From: Candidatus Altiarchaeota archaeon
Lineage (GTDB): Archaea > Altiarchaeota > Altiarchaeia > IMC4 > QMZM01
NCBI GenBank assembly: GCA_016931955.1
Contig: JAFGDV010000011.1
Location: forward strand, 1-16,945
Length of the DNA stretch: 16,945 nt
Direction of reading: 5' to 3'
Below the pieces are notes generated by a model, which saw nothing but the letters and a program-made list of their open reading frames with translations, was not told the DNA's origin and did no database searches. A program made the translations under genes and the position numbers. Positions 170 through 8,162 of the stretch are shown here, one piece after another (the first letter of the stretch is position 1; every line of letters begins with the position of its first letter).

Positions 170-180
170 CGGTTTTGAAA

Positions 181-267
181 CGCCGAGGTTGGGATTTGAA
201 CCCAAGCCTCCCAGGGGGAGACAAGCTTTCCAGGCTTGCGCGTTAGTCCAGGCTCTGCCACCTCGGC
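181..267 (-). tRNA. tRNA-Ser(GGA)
   Basis: Reverse complement folds as a cloverleaf: acceptor GCCGAGG/CCTCGGC, anticodon arm CAAGC-CT-GGA-AA-GCTTG (anticodon 231-229), long variable arm, T arm TTGGG-TTCAAAT-CCCAA, discriminator G, no encoded CCA, no intron. Confidence 0.97.
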
Positions 268-269
268 AT

Positions 270-527
270 GTCGGAATTAGCCGACGACTAAGGTGCTATC
301 TTCACACCTTCGGTGTTCGATAACACAGATGTTTATTGCCGATTTCTTATCTGTCGACACAAAGTGTCGACCTTTCTTTTCCGTGAGCGAGACCTTCGGT
401 CTCGACTCAGACAAGACAGCAACGCTGTCTTGTTGATGCACGTTTTTCTTGCTAAGAAAAGGGTGCCCACGGCTCTGCCACCTTGGCATGAAGAGGCTAG
501 CGACGACGGTCGCTTCTGCCTTGGCAT
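270..527. repeat. Hairpin array 1, upstream of tRNA-Ser
   Basis: Stems at 304-316, 353-371, 384-409, 411-433, 438-466 and 499-514; segment 353-466 is homologous (reverse complement) to 7787-7953. Confidence 0.85.
471..490 (-). repeat. Duplicate of the tRNA-Ser 5' end
   Basis: GGCTCTGCCACCTTGGCATG (471-490) vs GGCTCTGCCACCTCGGCATG (251-270), 19/20 identical; further degraded copy TCTGCCTTGGCAT at 515-527. Confidence 0.85.
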
Positions 528-7554: not shown

Positions 7555-7566
7555 TATTTATAATTA
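7555..7566. promoter_or_regulatory. Candidate bidirectional TATA box for tRNA-Arg (+) and the PHP gene (-)
   Basis: TATTTATAATTA reads TTTATAAT on + (about 27 nt before 7591) and TATAAATA on - (about 25 nt before the ATG at 7530). Confidence 0.55.
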
Positions 7567-7590
7567 AGGAAAAACAACATTAAAGGACAA

Positions 7591-7664
7591 GGGCCTGTGG
7601 GGTAGCCAGGATATCCTAGGGGACTTCGGATCCCTTGACCCGGGTTCGAATCCCGGCAGGCCCG
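7591..7664 (+). tRNA. tRNA-Arg(TCG)
   Basis: Acceptor GGGCCTG/CAGGCCC, anticodon loop CT-TCG-GA closed by GGGA/TCCC, T arm CCGGG-TTCGAAT-CCCGG, discriminator G, no encoded CCA. Confidence 0.97.
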
Positions 7665-7667
7665 CTA

Positions 7668-8019
7668 ATAGCCCTTTTAGAAAAAGGGCTATCATCCCAA
7701 AAGAAAACGGATTTCTTTTTCGTGCACGTTTTTCTTTCCCAAAGAAAAAGGTGCTTCGCAATCCCGGCAGGCCCGCTAATAGCCATCAGCCTTTCTTTTT
7801 AGAGAGCGCAAAATCTATGATTTTGGCTACCAAAATTGCTTTGCAATTTTGAGTAAAAGAAACGCTGTCAGCAGAACGCAACAGCGTTCTGTCTGAGTTG
7901 AGACTGAAGGTCTCACTCAGCGAAAGAAAAAGGAATTCGCCAAAGGCGAATTCTTTTTGATCAACCTTTTACGAAAAGGTTGGGGTTGATAAGGGAGGGA
8001 ACGCAGTTCCCACACTTAT
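7668..8019. repeat. Hairpin array 2, downstream of tRNA-Arg
   Basis: Stems at 7668-7692, 7699-7719, 7724-7754, 7787-7867 (enclosing 7809-7825 and 7831-7851), 7872-7891, 7893-7920, 7933-7953, 7962-7982 and 7997-8011. Confidence 0.88.
7760..7784 (+). repeat. Exact 25-bp duplicate of the tRNA-Arg 3' end plus trailer (att- or TSD-like)
   Basis: AATCCCGGCAGGCCCGCTAATAGCC at both 7649-7673 and 7760-7784. Confidence 0.93.
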
Positions 8020-8162
8020 TTTTTCAGGATTATGATGTCTCCCCCGCCTTTCTTGAATTTCCCCTTCTCAGCGCTTCTCCCAGGTATCAGAGAATACAGC
8101 AAACTGAGTAGTAATTACAGGGACTACCATACTTCACTTTATCCTCTAGTAAAGGAGGGATA

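Follow-up and report, generated by a model that had tools for sequence, protein, structure and literature searches.

A mosaic family of palindromic hairpins at the tRNA genes of an Altiarchaeota archaeon: candidate non-autonomous insertion elements

Introduction

Two different tRNA genes on one contig of Candidatus Altiarchaeota archaeon are accompanied by a similar series of short hairpins, which raises the question of what these hairpins are and how they came to lie there. The contig (JAFGDV010000011.1; C22), analysed at its full length of 16,945 nt and referred to here as the window, belongs to a 1.55-Mb assembly of 46 contigs that is 92% complete (G000, the genome under study). A first-pass annotation had read the hairpins as a four-hairpin module shared by the two loci. 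On balance, and with modest confidence, we consider the four hairpins (a T/A-rich hairpin, B, C and D) to be a recurrent arrangement within a mosaic palindromic family, whose blocks would be non-autonomous insertion elements at tRNA genes.

Six kinds of module were told apart (T/A-rich hairpins, B, C, D, E and F), each with a simple search pattern. A covariance model of the B-C core, R1, was built after aligning 16 well-aligning copies, and folds were compared with dinucleotide shuffles (n = 200 per stretch). The order-level comparison comprises 49 genomes including G000; G001 denotes a genome of the same genus.

Hairpin series at the two tRNA loci

The first locus lies beside tRNA-Ser and comprises the following features:

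180-268, minus strand: intact tRNA-Ser(GGA) gene (ARAGORN; Rfam tRNA, 49 bits)
353-371, minus strand: hairpin D', with an 8-bp stem and 3-nt loop, in the slot of the GAATTC-type hairpin D of other copies
372-383, minus strand: A-rich linker from C to D', similar to the linker in other copies
384-409, minus strand: hairpin C (4 bp, 1-nt bulge, 7 bp, GAA loop), within the R1 hit 383-437
412-432, minus strand: hairpin B, with a CAAGAC...GTCTTG base and a variable top
438-466: T/A-rich terminal hairpin of the 'G' type (hairpin A of the first-pass annotation), its GGTGC end toward the partial tRNA-Ser copy
471-490, minus strand: partial copy of the tRNA-Ser 5' end, 19/20 identical, positions -1 to 18, stopping in the D-loop

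The second locus lies beside tRNA-Arg:

7591-7665, plus strand: intact tRNA-Arg(TCG) gene (ARAGORN; Rfam)
7649-7673, plus strand: direct repeat copy 1, from the tRNA-Arg T-loop (position 59) to 8 nt beyond the 3' end
7669-7691: T/A-rich hairpin immediately behind tRNA-Arg
7724-7759, plus strand: terminal 'G' hairpin (7724-7754) and T-loop-like TTCGC (7755-7759), abutting repeat copy 2
7760-7784, plus strand: direct repeat copy 2, 25/25 identical, a displaced partial tRNA-Arg 3' end
7806-7851, plus strand: hairpins H (7806-7827) and I (7830-7851), also found on contig C9 and in related genomes
7872-7919, plus strand: hairpins B (7872-7891) and C (7894-7919), R1 hit 7867-7920
7933-7953: hairpin D (GAATTCGCC...GGCGAATTC), then a T run
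7963-7981: hairpin E (AACCTTTT...AAAAGGTT)
7984-8019, plus strand: terminal hairpin F (GGTTGATAAGGG...), with one lower-stem change (CACTTAT) and no tRNA copy behind

The hairpins, coordinates and letters of the first-pass annotation were borne out at both loci, as was its 30-nt core with 27/30 (90%) identity between 413-384 and 7890-7919; the three differences, read directly from the sequence, are one compensatory change (C-G to T-A) and a single T·G wobble. Hairpin A, which had been assigned at both loci, stood at the first (438-466) and is weak at the second, where it had been placed at ~7787-7810. Its true counterpart there is 7724-7754, outside the span originally described and across the 25-nt tRNA-Arg repeat. 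The second locus also runs past 7953 with hairpins E and F, and hairpins H and I sit between the claimed A and B, all of them previously unremarked. The folds of both series beat their shuffles (z = -5.36 for 350-470, minus strand; z = -9.52 for 7785-8025, plus strand), with 0/200 shuffles as good in each case. The G block at 7724-7759 shares ~92% identity with the block behind tRNA-Met on contig C21, and at the first locus a weaker likeness to tRNA-Ser continues upstream of the partial copy.

A genome-wide repeat family with covarying stems

A covariance-model search, the check proposed in the first-pass annotation, brought up further copies: R1 matched 17 sites in G000, with the module scoring on both strands, and had matches in 12 of the 49 genomes of the order, counting G000. 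The same-genus G001 gave no R1 match. At 12 of the 17 sites a perfect hairpin lies within 60 nt on both sides, typically T/A-rich upstream and of the GAATTC-type D downstream, and the four-hairpin module is therefore a recurrent composite. Across G000 there are 106 distinct module sites in 44 clusters, with mixed orders and inverted orientations. The module is one arrangement of a mosaic repeat family and is not private to the two loci.

The stems covary beyond both kinds of control, in keeping with the earlier proposal that shape is conserved more than sequence. In the 16-copy alignment, 93.4% of cells in the B-C structure are paired, against 86.7 ± 0.9 in shuffles (0/500 reach the observed value), and compensatory pairs, with both sides changed, number 11/20 against 4.9 ± 1.2; slid controls of the structure are 30-47% paired. 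That no named RNA family fits also held up. With gathering scores, a Rfam scan of the window passed only the two tRNAs, and in permissive scans of 7560-8080 and 150-620 all non-tRNA hits fell far under the gathering score; apart from tRNA-like models on the tRNA genes, these hits had E values of 0.3 or worse. A search of the literature on archaeal tRNA, palindromes, MITEs (miniature inverted-repeat transposable elements), T-loops and intron transposition gave no description of the hairpins, although supplements and subscription journals lay outside it and a prior description is possible.

The first-pass annotation had offered a structured RNA or a single-stranded-DNA mini element. The B-C stems in G000 comprise 276 Watson-Crick, 6 G·T and 7 A·C pairs, and those in relatives 272, 3 and 0, respectively; this comparison of G·T with A·C reveals no strand asymmetry and gives no pointer to RNA. 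Because the stems are nearly pure Watson-Crick, lack strand bias and are accompanied by partial tRNA duplications, which imply that DNA was rearranged, the evidence leans towards DNA-level palindromes rather than structured RNA. Two metatranscriptomes of the same study yielded next to no matches to words of the element, and the matching contigs were fragmentary and silent on expression, ends and excision.

Association with tRNA genes and partial tRNA copies

ARAGORN, allowing introns, called 21 tRNA genes in G000, and the Rfam tRNA model 17. Sequence within 300 nt of the 21 genes makes up 0.88% of the genome and holds 55 of the 106 module sites and 19 of the 44 clusters (binomial P ~1e-27); a further 8 clusters are located at contig ends. 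The tRNA linkage proposed in the first-pass annotation holds in this genome; in related genomes, a tRNA lies within 1.5 kb at only 3 of 14 B-C loci. Near tRNAs in G000, the B or C sites (10 of 10) and the F sites (9 of 9) have the same sense as the tRNA, and T runs follow many hairpins. The tRNA counts are underestimates, because a tRNA-Leu-like 3' half at C10:3230-3450 (also L006), with a long intron likely, was called by neither program. This 3' half is followed by an E-D-F block and then by a partial copy of its own T-loop-to-3' end.

Partial copies of the local tRNA accompany 12 of the 21 tRNAs. Copies of the 3' part, starting at tRNA positions 57-62, lie behind 7 tRNAs, namely Pro, Val, Met (twice), Arg, Gln, Gly and Phe, and copies of the 5' part, ending at positions 7-28, lie before 6, namely Ser, the tRNA on contig C27, Phe, Asn, Arg(GCG) and Glu. 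Exact copies of at least 14 nt occur within 1.5 kb at 9/21 tRNAs, compared with 77/3000 random windows. Each block is closed by a terminal hairpin, and the hairpin adjoining a partial copy is always such a one, either the 'G' hairpin or hairpin F; its outer side faces the displaced copy, which covers either the T-loop, 3' end and trailer or the part between the 5' start and the D-loop, and the intact tRNA lies on its inner side. The same G block of ~50 nt is found at the Arg, Met, Val, two Ser and C27 tRNAs, each time beside a copy of the local tRNA, of the T-loop type at Arg, Val and Met and of the D-loop type at both Ser and the C27 tRNA. Behind tRNA-Pro there are three tandem units, each of which combines a 3' piece of the tRNA with a body and F, and the bodies and hairpin tops differ; the most distant tRNA piece is the most decayed. 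At L011 (G019:C236, ~1500-2000), at least four tandem 129-nt units each consist of an E-type hairpin, a second hairpin and a tRNA-3'-end-like stretch.

The same hairpin kinds also occur within tRNA genes. In G000 they make up the long introns of four tRNAs (Leu, Trp, Asn and His), and these introns include an E-like hairpin with a linker identical to that of the flanking blocks. In addition, an F hairpin at C21:11600-11700 holds two further palindromes in its loop, and this nesting suggests insertion of the elements into one another's loops. Box C/D motifs are known in euryarchaeal tRNA-Trp introns; the 105-nt tRNA-Trp intron of G000 (C10:27976-28153) carries a T/A hairpin and box C/D-like motifs.

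Hairpin F beyond the lineage

Within the order, F is present in 81 copies in 18/49 genomes, as opposed to a single match for a reversed control pattern, and its copy number among the 49 genomes ranges from 0 to 22. A wider scan with one genome per species, using the pattern GGTTGATAAGGG, a gap of 4-26 nt and CCCTTAT, returned at least 120 stretches, and the counts given below for the archaeal and bacterial loci are those among the matches listed. Of the 120 listed stretches, 80 are labelled archaeal and 40 bacterial. F lies within 350 nt of a tRNA in 36/87 copies in archaeal loci and in 1/40 in bacterial loci. The labelled contigs that bear F include Altiarchaeota, Woesearchaeota, Nanoarchaeota, Pacearchaeota, Aenigmarchaeota, Micrarchaeota, Iainarchaeota, Methanosarcinales and ANME-1. 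The upper stems have 73 distinct inner sequences in 100 copies and are nevertheless paired, with a mean Watson-Crick run of 1.58 versus 0.33 in shuffles, and contain 15 G·T and 3 A·C pairs.

The sequence just past F is repeated 13-800 nt upstream in 39/149 copies (at no more than 220 nt except in two), and for 22 of these 39 the upstream partner lies inside a tRNA. Where F is in the sense of the tRNA the repeat begins in the T-loop, and where it is antisense the repeat is the 5' part up to the D-loop. Removing the F element in silico restored a tRNA across the T-loop junction at L018, L045, L097 and L127, and at L060 the element is a canonical tRNA-Trp intron. The four T-loop inserts, on DPANN-labelled contigs, are antisense and flanked by a ~5-nt repeat of the loop palindrome; free-energy folds of the T-loop cases gave only a helix with one 3-nt bulge. 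F also occurs at the 3' ends of protein genes, with the gene end duplicated. At L048 and L128 the core, of 18 and 41 nt, is identical and lies amid homologous, diverged flanks with the stop codon kept, and at L024 the tRNA piece is identical and the trailers differ. Identical cores with diverged flanks at these three loci fit an imported replacement end better than duplication followed by drift. One element (L028) is bounded by two inverted F hairpins.

The F pattern had 17 matches among IMG/VR viral contigs, most of them in one phage coding sequence, and none of the 17 was an attP site next to an integrase. The bacterial matches were set aside as tRNA-linked relatives, with only 1/40 near a tRNA and, by estimate, ~100 chance matches expected in 596 Gb; the Bacteroidota cases are tandem TTATCAACC-like iterons. 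Metagenome-assembled genomes (MAGs) labelled Clostridiales and Christensenellaceae have a repeat in several copies that shares the hairpin base (GGTTGATAAGGGGCCGCAGCCCCTTAT), away from tRNAs and with a conserved stretch of two more hairpins behind (L021, L022, L030, L033-L035, L050, L054, L084, L092, L100, L111, L114, L119, L121 and the viral contig L140). This repeat may be an element in its own right or else a cross-domain relative. A Xer/dif site was likewise rejected as the identity of F. Where described, the dif site of P. abyssi has 11-nt arms and a 6-nt spacer (PMC2958812), and F has 10-40 nt between ATAA and TTAT and a right flank that is no mirror of the left.

Search for a recombination enzyme

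The only tyrosine recombinase of G000 belongs to a 9.6-kb element at tRNA-Cys (C38:51049-60750; L260). The 403-aa recombinase, with a C-terminal zinc-ribbon-like motif, lies just behind tRNA-Cys and is followed by a gene for a 951-aa DUF3987 protein (primase-helicase-like); the other open reading frames (ORFs) encode a protein with a weak winged-helix match and a 219-aa protein whose histone-fold match is borderline (25.8 bits, with the cut-off at 26.4). The two ends of the element are marked by a 15-nt repeat (tRNA-Cys positions 61-75), a T-loop-start repeat of the same kind as at the hairpin blocks. The displaced 15-nt tRNA-Cys end is directly followed by a T/A-B-C-D block, and no hairpin modules were found in the ends of the element. 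RAYT/Y1 (PF01797) was absent from G000, a profile that matched in 6 control genomes, and the best G000 score for an integron integrase was 21 bits against a cut-off of 265. The first-pass annotation had suggested tRNAs, HUH/Y1 transposases, reverse transcriptases and integrases as neighbours to look for; tRNA enrichment was found, HUH/Y1 transposases and reverse transcriptases were found nowhere in the 92%-complete G000, and an integrase only in the 9.6-kb element.

Proposed mechanism

At loop positions of tRNA genes the DNA has clearly undergone rearrangement, and the fixed junction lies at the terminal hairpin. If the blocks are non-autonomous insertion elements, a block would enter at the palindromic loop DNA of a tRNA gene, and the tRNA would be kept functional either by duplication of its end or by a replacement end that is carried in. 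A recombination enzyme would read the terminal hairpin beside the loop core, the loop palindrome serving as the core and the terminal hairpin as the arm next to it, and tRNA ends might be captured through aberrant excision. Such a route would be att-type, cassette- or integron-like, rather than that of a cut-and-paste transposon, and it is favoured because of what the 9.6-kb integrase element did at tRNA-Cys. We infer this mechanism, since neither an enzyme nor RNA evidence was found. Judging from their T runs, the hairpins may secondarily act as tRNA terminators, which is plausible.

Insertion at tRNA genes is supported by the number and covariation of the copies, the tRNA linkage in G000, the partial tRNA copies, the variable copy number of F, the tandem units behind tRNA-Pro and the modules in introns. 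The comparison with G001 also supports it: at the orthologous tRNA-Ser locus the block is absent, the upstream region is short and plain and the neighbouring gene is kept, and at tRNA-Arg there are no modules and a gene lies directly behind. G001 is diverged, however, and its neighbourhood at the Arg locus is rearranged. Several observations weigh against insertion. No filled and empty pair from close strains was found, a metagenome scan with the PHP-domain neighbour giving only relatives of at most 45% identity. The B-C core in relatives lies mostly away from tRNAs, and T/A-B-C-D can also be a resident trailer, as behind the displaced tRNA-Cys end. At C9, L039 and the second window locus the tRNA copies equal the terminal hairpins in number instead of exceeding them by one, so that simple insertion models do not predict the arrays. 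Repeat lengths of ~5 to 76 nt fit no known single mechanism, and the same G block at different tRNAs favours a duplicated local target over a carried end that was inherited. The 92%-complete G000 yielded no Y1 or Y2 HUH, reverse transcriptase, TnpB, Cas1, rve, DDE_Tnp_1 or IS110 (GIY-YIG was outside the search), with the caveats that insertion sequence (IS) genes are often unbinned and that the Y2 HUH profile matched nowhere, control included. An integrase acting in trans gained no support from co-occurrence: recombinase homologues (16 genomes) and F (18 genomes) coincide in 5/49, with ~5.9 expected by chance.

Alternative explanations and comparison with known systems

The hairpins might be resident functional flanks of tRNA genes, such as bidirectional terminators, processing signals or insulators in the pre-tRNA transcript, with the partial copies arising from unrelated integrase events. 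This reading would accommodate the T runs, the common sense of the 10/10 B or C and 9/9 F sites near tRNAs, the T/A-B-C-D trailer behind the displaced tRNA-Cys end, the T/A hairpin that G001 also has behind its tRNA-Ser, and the excess of G·T over A·C in the upper stems of the listed F matches, a sign of one functional strand. We consider it unlikely. The same G block stands beside copies of different tRNAs, G001 lacks the block upstream of the orthologous tRNA-Ser, relatives have anywhere from 0 to 22 copies, and some copies are located within protein genes or at their ends, with the gene end duplicated. The B-C stems are also nearly without wobble pairs or strand bias, and in relatives they are mostly far from tRNAs.

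Distinctly unlikely is a second possibility, that the inserts are what decay has left of integrative plasmids or viruses with genes of their own, the att sites remaining after internal deletion as in cis-mobilizable elements (CIMEs). As at att-type integrated elements, the end of the target gene is repeated across the insert and an intact gene lies on one side (25/25 for Arg, 19/20 for Ser). Repeats begin in the T-loop, as with the 9.6-kb integrase element, and partial tRNA copies are stacked. Sugahara et al. (2012; PMC3293823) proposed that an integrating mobile element leaves tRNA fragments and introns; the T-loop-start and 5'-fragment types and their stacking resemble that model, of which the element at tRNA-Cys is a true example. 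In all cases examined, however, the inserts are only 40-350 nt long and consist of shared hairpin modules, with neither genes nor gene fragments. The same block recurs at several tRNAs, the integrase family does not co-vary with F, the 9.6-kb element has no hairpin modules in its ends, and the IMG/VR matches are mostly in phage coding sequence.

Repetitive extragenic palindromes and the bacterial interspersed mosaic elements that they form (REP/BIME) in Enterobacteria and Pseudomonas are short palindromes of intergenic DNA, conserved at the base of the stem and variable at its top, and are arranged in mosaic clusters with conserved linkers. The hairpins resemble them in make-up, namely in their mosaic clusters of short imperfect palindromes with conserved linkers, conserved stem bases and variable tops, in copy numbers that differ among relatives, and in assemblies broken at the repeats. 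It is very unlikely, though, that they are a REP/BIME-like or MITE family moved by a transposase (an HUH enzyme on single-stranded hairpins, or a DDE enzyme with short target duplications), in which case selection to keep tRNAs intact would have produced the long tRNA repeats as a side effect. The ~5-nt repeats around the four T-loop insertions and the two inverted F ends of L028 would agree with such a family. G000 is, however, archaeal, with no RAYT/Y1 gene, and its blocks are concentrated at tRNA genes and tied to partial target duplications. Unlike MITEs, most copies have one terminal hairpin and no terminal inverted repeats, and the flanking repeats (~5 to 76 nt) show no fixed target duplication; a related autonomous IS transposase was not found in G000 (rve, DDE_Tnp_1, IS110, TnpB and Y1 searched), where IS genes may be unbinned.

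Retroposition of a hairpin-ended RNA copied into nicked tRNA loop DNA, leaving a fixed 3' junction with variable 5' extent and target duplication, is extremely improbable. A fixed terminal-hairpin junction combined with a variable other junction and repeat length would agree with it, as would the excess of G·T over A·C in F stems. Against it, no reverse transcriptase was found in G000, the partial tRNA copies carry the gene trailer and not CCA, and the module order is shuffled and inverted rather than 5'-truncated.

Two further systems invite comparison. The attC cassettes of integrons have a folded hairpin with paired core sites at its base and an integron integrase. In a similar manner, a hairpin with a conserved base and a variable top ends each cassette here, and cassettes stack by a fixed site with the tRNA-nearest copy best preserved. 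In contrast, G000 has no integron integrase, the cassettes are without an ORF, the junction repeat is a piece of the target gene, and outside the 7-bp stem the two sides of F lack complementarity. As for archaeal bulge-helix-bulge tRNA introns, which include some at non-canonical positions, the same hairpin kinds fill the canonical introns of four G000 tRNAs, and on DPANN-labelled contigs F constitutes a tRNA-Trp intron as well as four interruptions of T-loops, whereas the window modules lie outside both mature tRNAs. By the sequence criteria applied here, the family is REP/BIME-like in make-up, similar to att-flanked miniature elements in its junctions, and overlapping with archaeal tRNA introns in location. 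It departs from each of them in a defining feature: there is no RAYT and no terminal inverted repeat or fixed target duplication, no integrase was found to track the hairpins, and the window copies are outside the tRNA.

Genomic setting

The genes of the window are of the housekeeping kind, encoding leucyl-tRNA synthetase, an aminotransferase, an Lrp/AsnC regulator, aspartate-semialdehyde dehydrogenase, a PHP protein, phosphoribosyl pyrophosphate synthetase and others, with no mobile-element genes among them. Beside the tRNA-Ser locus, a 259-aa ORF (602-1381) without a Pfam match starts with short Cys- and Glu-rich tandem repeats. BLAST of both window loci against G000 matched many contigs, frequently at contig ends, and the G000 contigs break at the repeats.

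Implications for archaeal tRNA genes

Repeats of this kind break MAG assemblies at tRNA genes, and G000 has only 21 assembled tRNAs; the tRNA fragments that they make can also be mis-called by annotation tools. In Archaea, tRNA genes frequently contain interruptions, are split or have fragments beside them. Here, one hairpin family is seen in three states, namely in flanking blocks that come with partial tRNA copies, in canonical introns, which it fills, and in interruptions of the T-loop, and these states occur in G000 and across several phyla. A 2026 preprint (10.64898/2026.10.13.758758), a census of Asgard archaea, reports no general route and leaves the arrival of introns open; if the family is mobile, that question becomes directly testable. 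A broader proposal, which is tentative and on the whole doubtful, is that a hairpin-ended miniature element, with the GGTTGATAAGGG…CCCTTAT base and lineage-specific partners, inserts in tRNA loop DNA across Archaea by loop-directed recombination without a known transposase. It would leave an intron (in the T-loop or anticodon loop), a 5' fragment or a 3' fragment beside a restored gene, and the product would depend on the orientation and on the length of the target copied. If this proposal is true, the F-type element would be a means by which archaeal tRNA genes gain introns and come to be split or fragmented.

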